A stretch of 54,512 bases of DNA. It comes from a virus (taxonomy: Duplodnaviria; Heunggongvirae; Uroviricota; Caudoviricetes). The notes below the pieces were generated by a model. The model worked only from the letters and a program-made list of their open reading frames with translations. It was not told where the DNA came from and made no database searches. The stretch's first letter is position 1. Each line of letters begins with the position of its first letter. The stretch lies in IMG/VR virus record IMGVR_UViG_2529293142_000033; one strand, written 5' to 3'. The position numbers and the translations under genes are program-made. This document shows, in pieces, positions 45,488-54,512 of the stretch.

Positions 45488-46027
45488 ATGATAAACATCA
45501 AAAATTTCACGCCATACATCCCGGAAAACCCGCCCGTGGCGTGGGCGTCATATCTCATCAGCGAGGATGGTCAGGACTGGTATGAATGCCAGACGCAGTT
45601 TGCAGAGGATACATACAAAGTTGCGTACGGCAGTGACGGTATCGTGCGCAGCATTTCGACCGATGTGTCGGCACTTTTTCCGCTCAACATGAGTGTTGCT
45701 GAGGTTGAGTCGCTGCCGGACGGTGCGGATATTGACGGCAACTGGGTATTAGACGGGGAGAGTGTGGTTGCGCGGACGCTGACGGCAGCGGAGTGGCAGG
45801 CAAAGGCGGAATCACAACGAAGCGCGCTGATATCGGATGCGAAGGCGACAATCAGCCTCTGGCAGTCAGAGCTTCTGCTGGGCATCATCAGTGATGACGA
45901 CAAAGAGAGTCTGACGGAATGGCTGTCTTACATAAAGGCGCTTCAGGGGCTGGATTTAAGTGGTGTGACAGATGAGGAGGGTTACAACGCGACAGTCTGG
46001 CCGGATGAACCGGGAGCCACAGCATAA
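45488..46027 (+). CDS. tail fibre assembly protein (Tfa)
   Basis: aaggagag RBS; about 180 aa; follows fibre gene as in P2/Mu. Confidence 0.65.
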   Translation: MINIKNFTPYIPENPPVAWASYLISEDGQDWYECQTQFAEDTYKVAYGSDGIVRSISTDVSALFPLNMSVAEVESLPDGADIDGNWVLDGESVVARTLTAAEWQAKAESQRSALISDAKATISLWQSELLLGIISDDDKESLTEWLSYIKALQGLDLSGVTDEEGYNATVWPDEPGATA

Positions 46028-46080
46028 AAGCCGCTGAGAAGCGGTTTTTTTAACAAAAAAAGCGGCACATAAAGTGCCGC
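46028..46080. terminator. pair of hairpins with T-runs (bidirectional terminator)
   Basis: aagccgctgagaagcgg+T8 on plus strand, then gcggcacataaagtgccgc whose complement is followed by T-run on minus strand. Confidence 0.65.
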
Positions 46081-46526
46081 AAACGCATTGTTTGTGAGTT
46101 TTAGGCCTTATACCTTTGACGCCTTTCATTCAACAGAAAAAGAATTTCTTTGTCAATTTTATATTATATGTTGTGTTGCTTTTTGTTGTTTTTTTGATTT
46201 TTATTTTTATATTATTGCACGTTTTTGATTAAAACTTTGCTGGATGTTTGTGCGCGTTATAGAAAGCTGAAGATGAATAAATGTTTTCTTTAAAAGAAAA
46301 ACCGGCACGGTTGATGCCGGTTATATCAAGGAGTGATATAAAATGGGATGAAAGGATTGGAAAAAAGAACTTAATCAAAAGGCATCGTAGGATCAAGCGA
46401 ATATGCAAATATCGTTGTTTTTTATTGAATTACTATATTTTTGTAACGATTGATGGTCCATGGTTCGAGAGTGCATTGTCCTTCGGTGAAAGAAAAATCC
46501 GAAACATTGATCCTACCCACGTAATG

Positions 46527-46709
46527 TGGACACGGCCCTAAGCGAGATTATGGTTTTCAAATTGTTCCGGGCTGAGACCGCCACAGGCACTGTGACGACG
46601 CCAGCGATTGTAATCACACTCGATATAATTAAACACCGTTGCCCGCATTATTTCCCGGCTGCTAAAGCGTTCCCCGTGGATACATTCCACCTTCAGCGAA
46701 TGAAAGAAG
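46527..46709 (-). pseudogene. IS3-family transposase orfB, 3' fragment
   Basis: minus-strand translation ..[58 protein letters not shown] is a typical IS3-family OrfB C-terminus. Confidence 0.8.
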
Positions 46710-46907
46710 CTTTCTGCGTATTTTCATGAAAGGAGATCACTCAATAACTTCCATCGAGATCGGGTAATAACATTTGAACAGATCGCTGAATAACATCGAT
46801 GGAGATCACTTTTGACTCATTTTGTTATTCAGTGATCTCCATCAATGTTATTGGAACTTCACAGGTGTGTTGATCTGTATCTTTTGCCATTCCGGTAAAG
46901 GATACCT

Positions 46908-48449
46908 ATGCCAACAGTTCCAATTTCTATGAGAAAACTTAAAGAAATTCTTAGGCTTAAATACGGTGTTGGACTCAGCCATCGACAAATTGGTCGTAGT
47001 CTTGCAATCTCCCCTTCCGTTGTATCCAGATATGCTAATCGGGCGGCTCAACTTGGCATAAAGCAGTGGCCCTTACCTACAGGATGGGATGATACAAAAC
47101 TAAAACATGCGTTCCTTCAGACCCAGGTTAAGATGAAGAAGCACTCTCTGCCTGACTGGGCTACAGTACACCGGGAACTGCGTAATAAATGCGTGACGCT
47201 GCAGCTACTCTGGGAAGAATACTGTGAGCGTAATCCAGGCGGTTTTTACAGCTATAACCATTACTGCCGGATGTACCGTGAATGGCTCAAAACCACTTCA
47301 CCATCAATGCGTCAGGTACATAAAGCTGGCGAAAAACTTTTCGTTGATTACTGTGGACCTACCGTTGGCGTTACCGACCCTGAGACCGGAGAAATAAGAA
47401 CTGCTCAGGTCATCGTAGCTGTTCTCGGGGCATCAAGTTACACATGGGCAGAGGCCACCTGGTCTCAGCAGCTTGAAGACTGGGTGATGAGTCATGTTCG
47501 CTGCTTCCAGTGGTTGGGTGGCGTTCCTGAACTTGTTGTTCCGGACAATCTGAAAAGCGCCACATCCAGGGCATGTAAGTATGATCCTGACGTTAACCCT
47601 ACCTACCAGCAGATGCTTGAGCATTATAATGTCGCAGTTTTGCCTGCGCGGCCACGTAAACCGAAAGATAAAGCCAAAGCTGAAGTTGGCGTTCAGGTTG
47701 TTGAACGCTGGATCATGGCCCGAATCAGGCATGAGATCTTCTACAGCCTTGCATCGCTTAATCAGCGCATTCGGGAGTTGCTGGAAAGACTGAATAACAA
47801 AATAATGCAGAAGTTGGGTTATTCACGTGCAGAACTCTTCATCCAGCTTGATAAACCCGCACTGAAGCCTCTTCCTGAAGCCAGTTACAGTTACACCCTG
47901 GTGAAGAAAGTCAGAGTTCATGCCGATTACCACGTGGAAATCGACAAACATTACTACTCGGTTCCATGTTCGCTGTTAGGCCAGCAACTGGAAGCATGGA
48001 TCTCCGGAGAACTGGTAAGACTCTTCAATCAGGGGCAGGAGGTTGCTGTGCACCCGCGCAAGCGTACTTATGGCTACAGTACCCGCAACGAGCACATGCC
48101 TGAAGCTCATCGACAGCATGCCACCTGGACGCCAGAGCGTCTTCTGGAATGGGCGGGGCACATAGGCAGTGAAACTCATAGTTATGTGCTTCATATACTG
48201 AACTCTCGTCCACATCCGGAACAAAGCTATCGCTTCTGCCTTGGACTCCTGAACCTTCATAAAAAATACAGTAAAGCCAGACTTAATGCAGCATGTGCAA
48301 GAGCTCTGAAAACAAAGGTATGGCGTCTGTCAGGTATTAAATCGATCCTGGAAAAAGGTCTGGATAAACAACCTGTTCAGGATCCAAAACCAGATCTGTT
48401 ATCCACGATGGAACACGAAAACGTACGCGGCAGTGAGTATTACCACTGA
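46908..48449 (+). CDS. istA: IS21-family transposase IstA
   Basis: 513 aa with N-terminal HTH and DDE integrase-like core; followed by istB. Confidence 0.85.
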   Translation: MPTVPISMRKLKEILRLKYGVGLSHRQIGRSLAISPSVVSRYANRAAQLGIKQWPLPTGWDDTKLKHAFLQTQVKMKKHSLPDWATVHRELRNKCVTLQLLWEEYCERNPGGFYSYNHYCRMYREWLKTTSPSMRQVHKAGEKLFVDYCGPTVGVTDPETGEIRTAQVIVAVLGASSYTWAEATWSQQLEDWVMSHVRCFQWLGGVPELVVPDNLKSATSRACKYDPDVNPTYQQMLEHYNVAVLPARPRKPKDKAKAEVGVQVVERWIMARIRHEIFYSLASLNQRIRELLERLNNKIMQKLGYSRAELFIQLDKPALKPLPEASYSYTLVKKVRVHADYHVEIDKHYYSVPCSLLGQQLEAWISGELVRLFNQGQEVAVHPRKRTYGYSTRNEHMPEAHRQHATWTPERLLEWAGHIGSETHSYVLHILNSRPHPEQSYRFCLGLLNLHKKYSKARLNAACARALKTKVWRLSGIKSILEKGLDKQPVQDPKPDLLSTMEHENVRGSEYYH

Positions 48450-48460
48450 TACGGGATCCA

Positions 48461-49210
48461 ATGATGAATCATCTTTACGAACAACTGACCGCACTTAAAC
48501 TCACCGGCTTCCGTGATGCGCTTAAAAAGCAACTTGCTCAGCCGGGCACATACCAGGAGCTGGGCTTCGAAGAACGCCTGTCATTACTGACAGCAGAAGA
48601 ACTAACCTGCCGTGAAAACAGGAAGGCAGAGCGTCTGATCAAACATGCACGGTTCAGACTTAATGCTGAGTTATCAAAGCTGGATTATCGTAACAATAGA
48701 GGGCTGGACAGGGCCCTCATCCGTTCACTCAGTCAGGGAAACTGGTTAACCCTGAAACAAAATATTTTACTGACCGGGGCCACCGGCAGCGGTAAAACGT
48801 TCCTGGCATGTGCACTTGGTCATAATGCCTGCCGACAGGGATACAAGGTCTACTATTATCGCCTTAAAGCGCTGATGGAACAGTGCTATCAGGGGCATGC
48901 TGATGGAAGATACAGCAAACTTTTGACCAGGCTGAATAATAGCGATCTGCTGCTTCTGGATGACTGGGGGCTGGAACCTCTCTCATCAGAACAGCGTAGC
49001 GACCTGCTGGAAATAGTGGATCTGATGTACCAACGAGGCTCAATCATCGTAGTGAGCCAGTTGCCGGTGGAAAACTGGTACAAAATGATCGGAGACTCCA
49101 CACATGCGGATGCCATCCTAGATCGACTGGTTCATGGCAGTATCAAGATCGAACTTAAAGGAGAATCAATGCGGAAAATACAATCTCCGTTGACCGAAGG
49201 AGATCAGTGA
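48461..49210 (+). CDS. istB: IS21-family ATP-binding helper IstB
   Basis: 249 aa with Walker A LLTGATGSGKTF and Walker B LLLLDDWG. Confidence 0.85.
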   Translation: MMNHLYEQLTALKLTGFRDALKKQLAQPGTYQELGFEERLSLLTAEELTCRENRKAERLIKHARFRLNAELSKLDYRNNRGLDRALIRSLSQGNWLTLKQNILLTGATGSGKTFLACALGHNACRQGYKVYYYRLKALMEQCYQGHADGRYSKLLTRLNNSDLLLLDDWGLEPLSSEQRSDLLEIVDLMYQRGSIIVVSQLPVENWYKMIGDSTHADAILDRLVHGSIKIELKGESMRKIQSPLTEGDQ

Positions 49211-49267
49211 AGGTAATTTAAAAACGGTTCTGTGAAAGTGACACGAACCGATCTCCATCGATGTTAC

Positions 49268-49978
49268 TCACCGATCTCCTTCACGGTAATACGCACTTTC
49301 CACACAGGCATTGTCATAACAGTAGCCTTTCGCACTCATACTGCCACGCAGGTTGTGTCGCTTCAGCAGCGCCTGATAATCCCCTGAACAGTATTGACCA
49401 CCACGGTCCGTATGAACAATGACGCTTTCCGGGCGTCTTCTCCGCCACAACGCCATTTGCAGTGCATCACAGGCCAGTTGTACTGTCATTCGCGGTGACA
49501 TCGACCAGCCAATGACGGCGCGTGACCACAGGTCGATGACTACTGCGAGATACAACCAGCCCTCATCGGTACGCAAGTATGTGATGTCACCCGCCCACTT
49601 CTGGTTCGGGCCACTGGCGCTGAAGTCCTGCTCCAGCAGATTCTCCAATACGGGCAGGCCATGTGCACGGTAGCTGACCGGGCTGAACTTCCGGCTGGCT
49701 TTCGCCTGCAGCCCCTGACGACGTAGGCTGGCGGCAATGGTTTTAATATTGAACTCCGGCAGTTCGTCAGCAAGGCGGGGAGCACCGTATCGCTGCTTTG
49801 CCTCAAAGAATGCCTTATGGACAGCGGCATCGCAGGTGAGCCGAAACTGTTGGCGCAGGCTCATCTGGTGACGACGCCTGAGCCAGACATACCAGCCGCT
49901 GCGGGCAACCCGAAGTACACGACACATCACTTTGATGCTGAACTCTGCCCGATGATTTTCGATGAAGACATACTTCAT
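49268..49978 (-). pseudogene. IS3-family transposase orfB, 5' part (truncated by IS21 insertion; last codons read into IS21 end)
   Basis: ..[46 protein letters not shown] then unrelated tail; matches IS3-family OrfB. Confidence 0.8.
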
Positions 49979-50199
49979 TTCAGGCGGACATTTTCAGCGG
50001 CCAGTTCGCTTTCGCGCTCTGACGAACTCATTTGTTGCTGCTGTTTACTGCGCCAGGTATAAAGCTGAGATTCATACAGGCTGAGTTCACGGGCTGCGGC
50101 GGCCACACCGATGCGTTCAGTGAGTTTCAGGGCTTCGTTACGAAATTCAGGCGTATGTTGTTTACGGGGCTTCTTGCTGATTGATACTGGTTTTGTCAT
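49975..50199 (-). CDS. IS3-family transposase orfA
   Basis: 74-aa HTH protein overlapping orfB start, typical orfA/orfB frameshift arrangement. Confidence 0.7.
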
Positions 50200-50299
50200 G
50201 AGTCACCTCTGGTTGAGAGTTTACTCACTTAGTCCTGTGTCCACTATTGGTGGGTAAGATCATTCTGATATCAGTCCAAAGCAAATGCATCAGTGTAAT

Positions 50300-51130
50300 T
50301 CAGAGAATGATTTTGGGATATGTAATGAAGTAATGCTTAAACTTTTTTGGAGTTATTCCAAAATATTCCCTAAATTTTTTTATGAAGTATGATGGACTCG
50401 ACATTCCTACTTCCGATGATATCTGAGATATCTGGAGATTGTTTTCGATTATAAGATCCATAGCTCTATTTAATCTTATTTGTAAAGCCATTCCGCTGAT
50501 GGTCAAATTTTCTTTTGCAAGTCGTTTTCTTACTGCAGACTCAGATAGGTGAAAATGCTTAGCTATATCCCGAACGCACCATTTTCTCTTTATGTTCATT
50601 TCAATAAATGCTCTTACCTTATCACTAAAGTGACTGACAGATGATGTAAGCAACGAACGAATGATGTAATCACGATCTTTGAATTTTGAGATAAAAAGTA
50701 GCGTCTTAATCAAAATTAGTTTTTCATCATTGGTAGTTGCAAGTTTTTTGAAAAAGAGTATAAGCTCATCTGTAGGCGTAAGTGTCAGTATTTTATCTCT
50801 TGATATTGCTGATTGATTAATTACCTGATGCCCTTTAAAGTAGATTTCTGCAATTACTCGTCGGAGTGTTTGTAGTTTATCCTCGTTGAATCTTATTGCC
50901 ACATATGGTTCTTTATGTTCATCATTCTTTTTCAGGTAGGCAGAAAAACAAGTTCCTTTATCAATGAAAATGAATTGGTTAAACCCGCATGTCAGTTTTT
51001 TATTTGATAGTGAGAAATTAATAGTGCAATTATTTGTATAAAGAATGATATATTTACTGGTTCTTATGTTAACGATCTTTAACTTTCTTTGTGAATGATG
51101 TTTGATGCTATTAATCATGTGTTTAGCCAT
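50300..51130 (-). CDS. AraC-family transcriptional regulator (AT-rich, horizontally acquired)
   Basis: 276 aa; C-terminal double-HTH (VRDIAKHFHLSESAVRKRLAKENLTISGMALQIRLNRAMDL..ISQISSEVGMSSPSYFIKKFREYFGITPKKF); markedly AT-rich gene. Confidence 0.8.
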   Translation of the reverse strand: MAKHMINSIKHHSQRKLKIVNIRTSKYIILYTNNCTINFSLSNKKLTCGFNQFIFIDKGTCFSAYLKKNDEHKEPYVAIRFNEDKLQTLRRVIAEIYFKGHQVINQSAISRDKILTLTPTDELILFFKKLATTNDEKLILIKTLLFISKFKDRDYIIRSLLTSSVSHFSDKVRAFIEMNIKRKWCVRDIAKHFHLSESAVRKRLAKENLTISGMALQIRLNRAMDLIIENNLQISQISSEVGMSSPSYFIKKFREYFGITPKKFKHYFITYPKIIL

Positions 51131-52026
51131 TTTTTTGGGGTGTGGTAATTATAACTATCAACTTCCTCAATGGAATATCTTGGCATTAAAAATAGGATGT
51201 TTTTATTAAATTTTGGCCGCTGTGGTTAAAGTAAAGGATGAGTTAATATCCAGTCCATCCTTAATGGGAGTGATTAGTTCACCATCAGATAAATCGTAAG
51301 TGGTGTTTTTGGGGGCTCGTCAAGCTCAAAAATGGCCGGGAGAAAATTGGATATAACTACAGGGTAGGACTTACGAAAGTGACAGAGTTGCTATAGGAAT
51401 ATAAAAACATTCATGGTGAACTGGGGTCTGAAAAGTCACATGCCCTCATTAGAAATGGTAGCATTTTAAGTGTGGGAATGAAAAACAGAAGAGCAAAAAT
51501 CATCCATAATATGTAGAATTAGATCATGTCAACCCATATTTAGTCCTTGTTCGATAGCAAGCCTCATTGACTTCGCCGTTATCACCAGATATGGCGAGTT
51601 CTTTGTAAGTGGGAGAGCTATTTTTAGATGTCGTGCAGCAGACATTTTTGCCGAGCGCTTCATCCGGAGCGATGAACCGTAGATTTTTCTGGTTGGAGCC
51701 GATCATATGTGATGCTATGGGGATATTTTTTCAGTAGGCTAGGTGGGAATTGTACCGTTAATATTATAGGCTTCTACCCAGTAAAAAGAGGCGAGGAAAC
51801 ATGCACGACAGGTGCTACACGTCATGCATAGATTGGGATTACTCATGACTAGCCACAGCTATAGGTCGTTAAGAGATTCGCAGCACGCTGTATGCAATAA
51901 CGTGCTGCGGCTGGCTGGTGAACTTTCGATAGTGCGAGTATTGAATGATTTCCAGCCGTTACCGATTTTACGTGTTTATTATTGAACAAACCACTCGTCA
52001 GCAGACTCCCTGGTATCTTTCAGAGT

Positions 52027-52227
52027 CTACTGAACAAATGTTTTTGCAGAATCCTTATCTGCGGTGCGTGTAACAGAAAGCTCATCATTGCTGGTGGCTT
52101 TTACGATCACTTCTACATCGTCATAACGCTTACTGATGCGCCGAGTTAATTCTTCCTTTAACGCATCCACAGCACTGTTTGGCATTTTAGTCATTTTCTC
52201 TTTGGCTATGCAGATATCAATACGCAT
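52027..52227 (-). CDS. DinI-like protein
   Basis: 66 aa, [26 protein letters not shown] resembles DinI. Confidence 0.6.
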
Positions 52228-52288
52228 AAAAATCCCTCCACGCTGTGTTTATATACAGTGTTATTTTTAACTGTGTAAATAAACAGTA

Positions 52289-53386
52289 TCAAGAGGTCTT
52301 GTTTCTGCTCCTTTGGAGTTCTTCAAAACGATTATGTAAAGATTTCGGATACAGTTCGGTATATACCTGCCATAGCACGTTTAATGAACGATGCCCTGTA
52401 ACCTGAGCGACTTCCTCAATACTAAAACCAGCCTCAAATAAGCGACTTGCCCCTTCCCTACGCAAATCATGGTATCGCAGATCTTTAATACCTAATTTGC
52501 TTCTTACCCTCTGAAATCCTGCGGTAACAGAAGTGCTGTTATATGGAAAAATGAATTCTGATTTTTGGGGTTGTTGCTGGACGATATCCCAGGCTTCCCC
52601 AAGCAAGGCAACTTTCATATGGTTGCCTTCCTTTTTACGTGGATCTTTCCTATCTCTTACTAGTATAGATTTTTGTTCCTGGTCGAGATCTTCCCATCGT
52701 AACCGGCATACTTCTCCAATTCGCATACAGGACCACACAGAAAATTTGAGGATATCAACGAACGGAATTTTTGAGCATTTATGAGTAGATCGTTGTTGAA
52801 GGCCTTCAATGAGCATGTCCAGTTCATCAGATGCTGGTCTACGATTACGACGGTTTGATTTACCAATCAAACCGAGTTTAAGTAGATATGGACGAGCGCT
52901 TTTCGCCGGGTTTGATGTGTAATTGATTCCGTATACAGGTTTTGCCGCATCCAGAACACTGCCAAGATAACTAACATCGTGGCTGACTGTTGCTGGGCCT
53001 GCACCAGCGTTGTTTCTTAGCCTGCAATGTTCAATTACGTCATTTTCTGTCAGTTCAGATAGTTTGATCGCGGAGATGTCGCTATCCATAAGCAGTTCCA
53101 GCACATATCTTTTAGTACGGCCTGCTTTACCTCCGGCATTTGGGTCATTTAAATATTTGTGTAGTAAGTCACGGACTGTAAGTCCGTCAACAGCATTTGA
53201 TGATGGAATGCCATATAGATCTAATTCCATCACTTTCTGTGCGCCCCATGTTTTGGCATGAGCATGTTTAGGGAATGTTTTGCTTTCCCTGTAAGTGATA
53301 ACACCTTTTTCTTTGATAATCACATTACAGCGATAGCGTGGTGTGCCATCGGATTTTAGTCGTTTCTCTATGTTATAGTACGCCAT
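52289..53386 (-). CDS. tyrosine-type site-specific integrase (dusA-associated)
   Basis: 365 aa, C-terminal catalytic region with conserved R..H..R..Y pattern (..DLRYHDLRREGASRLFEAGF..VAQVTGHRSLNVLWQVYTELYP); immediately adjacent and divergent to dusA. Confidence 0.9.
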   Translation of the reverse strand: MAYYNIEKRLKSDGTPRYRCNVIIKEKGVITYRESKTFPKHAHAKTWGAQKVMELDLYGIPSSNAVDGLTVRDLLHKYLNDPNAGGKAGRTKRYVLELLMDSDISAIKLSELTENDVIEHCRLRNNAGAGPATVSHDVSYLGSVLDAAKPVYGINYTSNPAKSARPYLLKLGLIGKSNRRNRRPASDELDMLIEGLQQRSTHKCSKIPFVDILKFSVWSCMRIGEVCRLRWEDLDQEQKSILVRDRKDPRKKEGNHMKVALLGEAWDIVQQQPQKSEFIFPYNSTSVTAGFQRVRSKLGIKDLRYHDLRREGASRLFEAGFSIEEVAQVTGHRSLNVLWQVYTELYPKSLHNRFEELQRSRNKTS

Positions 53387-53474: not shown

Positions 53475-54512
53475 ATGCACGATAATCATGAAACACAAAA
53501 AATTAATCAAACCAGCGTGATGCCGGAAAAAACTGGTGTTTACTGGAATTCTCGGTTTAGCATTGCTCCTATGCTCGACTGGACGGACAGACATTGCCGC
53601 TATTTCTTGCGTCTGCTTTCCCGCAATACGTTGCTGTATACCGAAATGGTGACCACAGGGGCGATTATTCACGGTAAAGGTGATTATCTGGCGTACAGTG
53701 AAGAAGAACATCCGGTAGCGTTGCAACTGGGCGGTAGCGATCCGGCGGCGCTGGCGCAGTGTGCAAAGCTGGCAGAAGCGCGCGGATATGATGAGATCAA
53801 CCTGAATGTCGGCTGCCCGTCTGACCGGGTGCAGAACGGCATGTTTGGTGCGTGTCTGATGGGTAATGCGCAGCTGGTTGCCGACTGTGTGAAAGCGATG
53901 CGCGATGTGGTGTCGATTCCAGTGACGGTGAAAACGCGTATTGGCATCGATGACCAGGACAGCTATGAATTTCTCTGCGATTTCATCAACACTGTTTCCG
54001 GCAAAGGCGAGTGTGAGATGTTTATCATCCACGCACGTAAAGCCTGGCTTTCGGGGTTAAGCCCGAAAGAAAACCGTGAAATCCCGCCGCTCGATTATCC
54101 GCGTGTGTATCAACTGAAGCGTGACTTTCCGCATCTGACAATGTCGATTAACGGTGGTATCAAGTCGCTGGAAGAGGCCAAAGCACACCTGCAACATATG
54201 GATGGCGTGATGGTCGGGCGCGAGGCGTATCAGAATCCGGGTATTCTGGCGGCAGTAGACCGGGAGATCTTTGGTTCCTCGGATACCGATGCCGATCCGG
54301 TGGCGGTAGTGCGCGCCATGTATCCGTACATTGAGCGTGAACTCAGCCAGGGGACGTATCTCGGCCATATTACCCGGCATATGTTGGGCTTGTTCCAGGG
54401 TATTCCTGGCGCGCGGCAGTGGCGGCGTTATTTAAGTGAAAATGCCCATAAAGCGGGTGCAGACATTAATGTGCTGGAACACGCGCTCAAACTGGTGGCG
54501 GATAAGCGTTAA
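53475..54512 (+). CDS. dusA: tRNA-dihydrouridine synthase A, full length with diverged 5' end
   Basis: 345 aa; body matches DusA; first ~34 codons differ from the displaced host fragment at 1071-1174. Confidence 0.9.

Follow-up and report, generated by a model that had tools for sequence, protein, structure and literature searches.

The 54,512-bp stretch of viral DNA analysed here (IMG/VR record IMGVR_UViG_2529293142_000033; hereafter the window) contains, between a tail-fibre assembly gene and an integrase gene, a small AT-rich regulatory module whose main gene encodes an AraC-family transcription regulator. The best explanation, to which we assign a probability of about 0.7, is that this gene is an intact Rns/AggR-class cargo regulator of a prophage integrated in the Escherichia coli dusA gene, and that its module has been split by insertion sequences (IS) of the IS3 and IS21 families. 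The regulator is a member of the Rns-type subgroup and represents a narrow, uncharacterised lineage. Its class and likely mechanism are already known, and nothing in the analysis shows a new mechanism; what is new is the lineage, its carriage by a prophage, and a small terminated unit linked to it. Coordinates of the features are collected in Table 1.

An intact AraC-family gene under purifying selection

A preliminary description of the window had reported a minus-strand gene for a 276-aa AraC-family protein with a double helix-turn-helix (HTH) C-terminus, lying in horizontally acquired AT-rich DNA. Both parts of this description agree with the present results. The open reading frame (ORF) is present, and two Pfam models matched residues 189–265 of its product above their cut-offs (HTH_18, E = 1.9e-15, 57.3 bits, cut-off 33.6; HTH_AraC, E = 1.2e-14, 54.4 bits, cut-off 26.6). 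In a structural model of the protein, seven helices at residues 164–264 superposed on the DNA-binding domains of GadX, MarA and Rns; the protein thus has the ~100-residue C-terminal DNA-binding domain with two HTH motifs of the AraC/XylS family. The GC content of the coding sequence is 0.319, compared with a median of 0.535 for the whole window and 0.578 for the phage late region, and it is the lowest-GC 831-bp stretch of the window (rank 2 of 2148 sliding windows over the 54.5 kb).

The coding sequence spans the full length of Rns in an end-to-end alignment and carries no lesion. Nei-Gojobori dN/dS values between the regulator and four relatives (53–79% identity) were 0.09–0.27. The possibility of a degraded pseudogene, which the preliminary description had itself raised, was rejected on the basis of the full-length alignment and these dN/dS values, and we conclude that the regulator gene is intact and under purifying selection. 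The identical 276-aa protein (P0001) was found on 43 contigs, and its 272-aa form on 116 contigs, from E. coli and Escherichia marmotae. The two lengths reflect the choice of start codon. The ATG at 51118 is kept in the relatives, in which the upstream ATG (51130) is missing, lies out of frame or has a stop after it; because only the former is conserved, the regulator is probably 272 rather than 276 aa long.

Assignment to the Rns/CfaD/AggR/VirF subgroup

When solved structures were searched with phmmer, residues 14–268 of the regulator matched CsvR (E = 7.3e-51) and Rns (E = 4.1e-50 to 1.2e-48); ToxT matched weakly, and GadX matched by its DNA-binding domain alone (E = 3.8e-13). An AlphaFold2 model built with 46 homologues (pLDDT 91.2) was compared with known structures by Foldseek, giving TM values of 0.84–0.87 to Rns and CsvR (38% identity) versus 0.60–0.69 to ToxT, and the N-terminal fold also matched that of Rns. 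Identities from tblastn and alignment were 36–40% to CfaD, 35–38% to AggR and 33–34% to VirF. Homology to the Rns/CfaD/AggR/VirF subgroup runs through the entire protein, with the N-terminal beta-barrel included, at the ~260–275-aa length of its members. Regulators of this subgroup activate adhesin or virulence promoters from AT-rich sites that have a TATC core near the -35, and they can functionally replace one another. Among the families named in the preliminary description, the Rns/AggR likeness was the correct one; the phylogeny against virulence regulators that it had proposed was run, and the neighbour-joining tree placed the regulator and five relatives in a separate clade, sister to CfaD/AggR. 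The lineage is narrow, with 8 of 1.84 billion cluster representatives matching the regulator at E ≤ 1e-30, the nearest being 53% identical.

Rns, CfaD and CsvR, master regulators of the CS and CFA pili of enterotoxigenic E. coli (PDB 6XIU, 9GFP), have the same size and two-domain architecture as the regulator, resemble it over the full length (E ~1e-50, 36–39% identity), and are likewise encoded by very AT-rich genes. The regulator and the Rns-type proteins also have closely similar HTH recognition segments (SESAVRKRLAKE and SSPSYFIKKFREYFGITPKKF in the former, SEITIRKRLESE and SSASYFIRIFNKHYGVTPKQF in the latter). In contrast to these three, the regulator is prophage-borne and without an adjacent pilus operon; its distance from Rns equals that of VirF, and it stands in its own clade. 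AggR of enteroaggregative E. coli and VirF of Shigella belong to the same AraC virulence subgroup (35% and 33% identity, respectively, over >90% of the length), but they are plasmid-borne, beside or near their regulons, and the AggR promoter rule is not enriched in the window (see below).

A different assignment is hinted at by the top NCBIfam E-values, which were those of YdeO (2.7e-18) and GadX (2.6e-17). The E. coli AraC-family genes for PatE, PsrA, PsrB and AppY, proteins of the GadX/YdeO/AppY type, are likewise accessory cargo of lambdoid prophages, and the prophage-end position of the regulator resembles that of PatE, PsrA and PsrB. The gene could then encode a GadX/YdeO/PatE-type acid-resistance regulator, like the AraC-like ones on the effector-encoding prophages of enterohaemorrhagic E. 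coli (EHEC) O157:H7. However, both matches were limited to residues 147–265 and scored 66.5 bits (YdeO, cut-off 348) and 62.9 bits (GadX, cut-off 500), so that no full-length match above the equivalog cut-offs of GadX, YdeO or GadW was obtained; a HilD model similarly matched the C-terminal half, with a score far under its cut-off. In the structure search, the GadX domain match stood against full-length matches of ~1e-50 to Rns and CsvR, and the N-terminal fold is that of Rns. We set this assignment aside, the match being confined to the DNA-binding half of the protein, and consider it extremely improbable. The regulator is set apart from PatE, PsrA, PsrB and AppY by the type to which they belong, the tested comparison being that GadX and YdeO match the DNA-binding domain only. 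The acid-resistance likeness proposed in the preliminary description is thus not supported, and neither is a close kinship to PerA: identity to the 258-aa AraC-family regulator of bfp plasmids, which we take to resemble PerA, is 24%.

The regulator has an N-terminal beta-barrel ligand domain and two HTH motifs. Most likely it acts as its solved relatives do, and would bind AT-rich sites at or near the promoters of horizontally acquired adhesin or toxin genes elsewhere in the genome and activate them. In Rns, a fatty-acid pocket between the domains involves I14, I17, H20, Y71 and R75; inhibition by decanoic acid was nearly abolished by R75A, whereas partial inhibition was retained in vivo with H20A (PMC12379584). 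The equivalent residues of the regulator in a HMMER alignment are I19, I22, S25, Y76 and R80, so four of the five are conserved; the position of H20 is occupied by Ser in the regulator and by Asn in its plasmid and cdt-linked relatives. Fatty-acid control of the regulator, with inhibition by fatty acids held in the inter-domain pocket, is plausible from this conservation.

Relatives of the regulator and candidate targets

Relatives were found in three settings. One that is 79% identical (P0002) occupies the same slot of related dusA prophages, with no IS. Relatives of 64–65% identity reside on bfp (type IVb pilus) plasmids of O63:H6 EHEC and enteropathogenic E. coli (EPEC), and one of 53% identity (L015 and L016, 5221–8819) is divergent from cdtABC (cytolethal distending toxin), across a 680-bp intergenic region. 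The sample with the cdt-linked relative also has the 79%-identical relative in its dusA prophage.

The closest relative in complete genomes is the 271-aa regulator of the bfp plasmids p377323_2f and pEC12_1 (WP_062860059.1; 64–65% aa and 74–76% nt identity), which shares with the window's gene a conserved TATAAT and the small terminated unit downstream. It differs in being plasmid-borne and IS-flanked, in lying ~8 kb from the type IVb (bfp) pilus operon, and in adjoining the second, 258-aa AraC-family regulator. No experimental characterisation of this 271-aa protein was found, and the literature search found no paper on the window's regulator or on Rns-like prophage genes.

No target gene adjoins the regulator in the window, consistent with the earlier proposal that its targets lie elsewhere. 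The location of the relatives near bfp and cdt suggests that candidate targets lie in pilus and toxin loci. Regulators of the Rns class act in diarrhoeagenic E. coli and Shigella as master switches for the expression of adhesins and toxins, and anti-virulence fatty-acid mimics are directed against them. A prophage-borne and selectively kept lineage with bfp- and cdtABC-linked relatives suggests that phages can spread switches of this kind and rewire the virulence regulation of EPEC-like hosts. Direct tests are possible of the regulon, of the ligand response of a protein with Ser where Rns has H20, and of the candidate small RNA linked to it.

The regulator as prophage cargo

The regulator is integrase-end, AT-rich cargo (a 'moron') of a lambdoid prophage integrated in E. 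coli dusA. The window closes with dusA itself (53475–54512, plus strand; 99.7% identical to E. coli dusA), and the gene order is tail-fibre assembly gene, regulator module, dinI-like gene, integrase, dusA. Prophage genes upstream include those for an exonuclease, an O-like replication protein, a Q-like antiterminator, and Mu-type baseplate and tail-fibre proteins. At a GC content of 0.32–0.37, versus 0.578 in the late region, the module is distinguished as accessory cargo of a dusA prophage. In each of the eight public contexts in which the identical protein occurs (8/8), the order dusA, integrase, dinI-like gene, ~900 bp, regulator and IS3 was maintained. The regulator also matched, over its full length, the PHROG family phrog_1450, of unknown function (E = 2.6e-44), and prophage carriage of such proteins is therefore not unprecedented.

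Location within a prophage, together with the phrog_1450 match, which places relatives in the genomes of other phages or prophages, might be taken as a hint that the regulator serves the phage itself, acting on lysogeny, tail-fibre or dinI-region genes rather than on host or virulence genes. However, its close relatives lie on plasmids and beside cdtABC with no phage genes around them, and the slot between tail fibres and integrase is an accessory one, outside the phage regulatory region. No full-length homologue of >25% identity was present in 50,697 deposited phage records, in which the homologues covered only the C-terminal 40–50% of the regulator at 33–35% identity, and binding sites are not enriched in the prophage. 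A role in the phage's own regulation is thus very unlikely. In other comparisons, 16 kb of late-gene sequence had no megablast match in the same phage records, and no PADLOC anti-phage defence model matched.

Composite structure of the upstream DNA

The preliminary description had assigned to the regulator about 900 bp of AT-rich, ORF-poor upstream DNA. No ORF of >60 aa is present in 51131–52026, as it had stated, but the DNA is not uniformly AT-rich, with GC contents of 0.365 at 51131–51530, 0.443 at 51531–51846 and 0.461 at 51847–52026. Nor is it a single regulatory region belonging to the gene: the ~900 bp is a composite, of which only ~400 bp (51131–51530) travels with the gene, no more than ~110 bp of this being conserved in all relatives, while the rest consists of decayed ykgJ and dinI sequence.

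Upstream homology ends at ~51208–51230 in the plasmid relatives and at 51238 in the prophage block of L012. Within the conserved segment, a perfect TATAAT (51153–51148, minus strand) is located ~30 nt 5' of the conserved ATG, at a distance fixed across the four closest relatives; its -35 is poor, and an AT-rich tract lies 5' of it. The site was not listed in a consensus promoter scan because of its poor -35. We infer that this region is the regulator promoter; with its -10 good but its -35 poor, it would then probably be activator-dependent or silenced. Farther upstream, 51379–51676 aligns at 75.7% with the P0002-type dusA prophages (L012–L014) and not with the plasmid copies. The segment 51239–51530 had no match in Pfam, NCBIfam or Rfam.

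Nested insertion sequences split the module

The preliminary description missed both the IS3/IS21 split and the 3' part of the module at 46030–46508. The IS3-family element begins 37 bp past the regulator stop codon, its terminal sequence (...GGGTAAGATCA) ending at 50262; position 50263, at which that description had begun, is the next base. The IS21-family element inside it is polymorphic, being missing from the otherwise identical contigs L003, L004, L006 and L007 and present in L008. IS3 itself is lacking in the P0002-type prophages. These IS-free dusA prophages are colinear with the window from 51676 to 50268 and then from 46465 to 45995, and the DNA at 46030–46508 is colinear with that 3' of the regulator in relatives (77% identity in IS-free prophages, 70–73% in plasmids). 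From this colinearity, 46030–46508 is the 3' part of the module.

Insertion of IS3, and later of IS21 inside IS3, split the module. The regulator was thereby parted from its native terminator, and also from the candidate small RNA, a conserved small unit with a terminator of its own that accompanies this regulator clade wherever the clade occurs. A terminator scan listed an intrinsic-terminator-like hairpin on the regulator strand at 46322–46300 (minus), which is probably the original terminator of the regulator.

The flanks of IS3 have no matching 3-bp sequence (CAT versus TTC), and ~300 bp of the IS-free relatives is missing at the IS3 site, which suggests an insertion-associated deletion. 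In some strains with the window's exact protein (L005, 8932–14179; GCA_005043865.1), the regulator-side IS3 leads to bfp-plasmid-like DNA, not to tail-fibre genes. The joined DNA is 99.7% identical to a region of the O63:H6 bfp plasmid and includes a 258-aa AraC-family regulator, IS4 and a pilin-like gene. The junction is either an IS3-mediated join of chromosome and plasmid or an assembly path through the repeat; whichever account holds, strains of the L005 type carry such plasmid DNA.

A candidate small-RNA unit downstream of the regulator

Alignment of five variants of the module's 3' part delineated a conserved unit at 46055–46156. Its 5' part consists of an invariant TTGACA (46156–46151), a 17-nt variable spacer and an invariant TTGAAT (46133–46128); these are followed by ~7 variable nt, a near-invariant 27-nt block (GTCAAAGGTATAAGGCCTAAAACTCAC), a variable linker and a strong terminator with a 7-bp stem (46080–46062; 6 GC pairs) and T7. 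The pattern holds in all five variants, the flanks of which are only 70–77% identical. The predicted RNA is ~48–66 nt long. Its start site is uncertain, because the conserved A of position 2 is missing from the -10-like TTGAAT and an alternative -10, TATAAG, occurs within the invariant 27-nt block. We infer from this conserved arrangement that the unit may be expressed as a small RNA. No covariation was seen in the five variants, and no Rfam family matched the unit.

The unit was present in every fetched locus that reached far enough, and only downstream of this regulator clade. Among 5,426 complete E. coli genomes it was found in 3, in each case on an O63:H6 bfp plasmid carrying the 65%-identical regulator relative; in metagenomes, one contig carried it, within the same plasmid module. 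It was found on no viral contig and in no GTDB representative genome. Pairing of the candidate RNA above shuffled controls was not detected to the regulator leader (four variants), window-wide, or over the initial 45 kb of the bfp plasmid.

Three other candidates for this 3' DNA were considered and rejected. HnrS, a 66-nt EHEC prophage small RNA (PMC13502914), is a different element, common in strains positive for the locus of enterocyte effacement, whereas the unit has the distribution given above. A 59-aa ORF at 46229–46408 (minus strand) was dismissed as a small protein, since indels break its plasmid copies. A 38-aa hydrophobic ORF antisense to the unit (46116–46232, plus strand) was dismissed as a type I toxin: L019 has a stop within it, L017 a frameshift, and 3 of the 5 variants no start codon for it.

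Just 5' of TTGACA, the window has a degenerate palindrome (46158–46178, minus strand). The equivalents in L012, L019, L021 and L017 form a near-perfect 16-bp palindrome (CACATCATATGATGTG in L012), which could be an operator.

The regulator and the small unit might together constitute a two-gene mobile cassette, an Rns-class activator with a riboregulator, that has moved among bfp plasmids, the cdt locus and dusA prophages. We regard this extension as tentative and rather unlikely. If it were correct, lysogeny would deliver a regulator of the master-switch type, with cross-talk to the pilus and toxin regulons of EPEC-like hosts.

Evidence against an active regulator

Several observations weigh against an active Rns/AggR-class regulator. 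Rns/AggR-type sites, a partner gene for an AraC negative regulator (ANR) and RNA targets were not found in the window. The promoter architecture reported for AggR and Rns is W7TATC, 21–23 bp, then the -10 (PMC6392122). It occurred at 9 sites in the window versus 6.7 ± 2.6 expected, the rule being that of AggR, which may not fit this clade, and no W7TATC-type site was present at the regulator's own promoter region. ANR genes are frequent, non-obligatory partners of the subgroup (PMC4983702), and one lies directly upstream of cfaD; in contrast, the regulator has none beside it, and tblastn with the cfaD-linked protein detected none in the window or in the fetched loci (best E = 0.93). A clear Shine-Dalgarno sequence was not seen before either candidate start codon, and of the two charged residues with which Rns contacts its ligand, one (H20) is not conserved. 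Finally, the IS3 insertion took away the native 3' region, and expression could be altered or silent.

These points bear on the view that the gene is silent, decaying cargo: intact but orphaned, as silenced AT-rich foreign DNA in a genome without targets. Both cargo neighbours have been inactivated (a ykgJ pseudogene and a dinI-like gene with a nonsense codon), two IS insertions adjoin the regulator, and the window holds neither target-like sites nor partner genes. Moreover, no complete E. coli genome (0 of 5,426) holds the gene at ≥80% coverage. However, the coding sequence is full-length and lesion-free, as described above, and the dN/dS values, which include that for the 79%-identical copy in the same slot, indicate long-term selection there. 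Dozens of contigs from two Escherichia species have retained the identical sequence, and the IS lies beyond the stop codon, leaving promoter and coding sequence intact. We therefore consider silent cargo an unlikely account, and retain that of an intact, selectively kept Rns/AggR-class regulator.

Table 1. Features of the regulator module and its surroundings (positions in the window).
Feature	Position	Strand	Basis or remark
Tail-fibre assembly gene	45482–46027		
Module 3' part, cut off by the IS elements	46030–46508	-	GC 0.334
Candidate small-RNA unit	46055–46156	-	Alignments of five variants, terminator scan, fold
IS3-family element	46509–50262	-	ORFs; Pfam HTH_Tnp_1, rve; ends read from sequence
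IS21-family element within IS3	46715–49295		2,581 bp; 5-bp target duplication CTTTC
Rns/AggR-class AraC-family regulator gene	50300–51130	-	276-aa ORF
Promoter-proximal region, kept in all relatives	51131–51238	-	Alignment of five upstream regions
Further AT-rich upstream DNA, prophage versions of the module only	51239–51530	-	No conserved ORF
ykgJ-family (cysteine-cluster) pseudogene, relic of original prophage cargo	51530–51846	-	tblastn
dinI-ykgJ intergenic spacer, holding the hairpin	51847–51981		
Hairpin, 11-bp perfect stem and 9-nt loop	51881–51911		Folded on minus strand
dinI-like gene, nonsense-truncated	51982–52227	-	ORF 52027–52227 (66 aa); last 15 codons as relic 51982–52026
Prophage tyrosine integrase gene, adjoining dusA	52289–53386	-	Pfam Phage_integrase, E = 8.8e-21; arrangement as annotated in L001

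Relics and hairpin between the module and the integrase

The short ORF remnants noted in the preliminary description are real, and correspond to the ykgJ pseudogene and to the last 15 codons of the dinI-like gene. Compared by tblastn with the intact YkgJ-family protein of L001, a related dusA prophage, the pseudogene is 56–57% identical in two frames, and has two in-frame stops, a frameshift, degraded Cys motifs and the loss of its last 3 codons. Remnants of the 3' end of ykgJ also lie upstream of the regulator in L012–L014, and insertion beside ykgJ therefore predates the divergence of these prophages. The search for small ORFs and small RNAs that had been proposed for the ~900 bp yielded these relics but no NCBIfam or above-threshold Rfam match: none of ten small ORFs of the module matched NCBIfam, and an Rfam scan by E-value over 45900–52400 returned only a sub-threshold CssrB match and a spurious miRNA match.

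The hairpin that the preliminary description placed at 51881–51911 is present, with a predicted folding energy of -18.6 kcal/mol on the minus strand, only modestly above chance (z = -2.2; 5 of 200 shuffles fold equally well). It was rejected as a terminator, having no U-tract, this low z and no listing in the terminator scan. The CssrB match (Shigella small RNA B; 51804–51909, plus strand; 27 bits versus a gathering threshold of 76, E = 0.003) was driven by the terminal 3' hairpin of CssrB. DNA at 51879–51971 is 80% identical to that 3' of cdtC in L015 and L016, and the hairpin is recurrent prophage sequence, outside the regulator module.

The dinI-like ORF matched Pfam DinI (E = 5.8e-11) and is 91% identical to the 82-aa DinI-like protein of L001. 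Its nonsense codon is codon 67, beyond which 15 codons are still readable; the right end given in the preliminary description, 52026, directly abuts the stop codon of this ORF. The 66-aa form is called in all contigs bearing P0001. In the P0002-type dusA prophages (L012–L014, 6962–7303), a 107–113-aa zinc-ribbon ORF (Zn_ribbon_ISL3) replaces the dinI-like gene.

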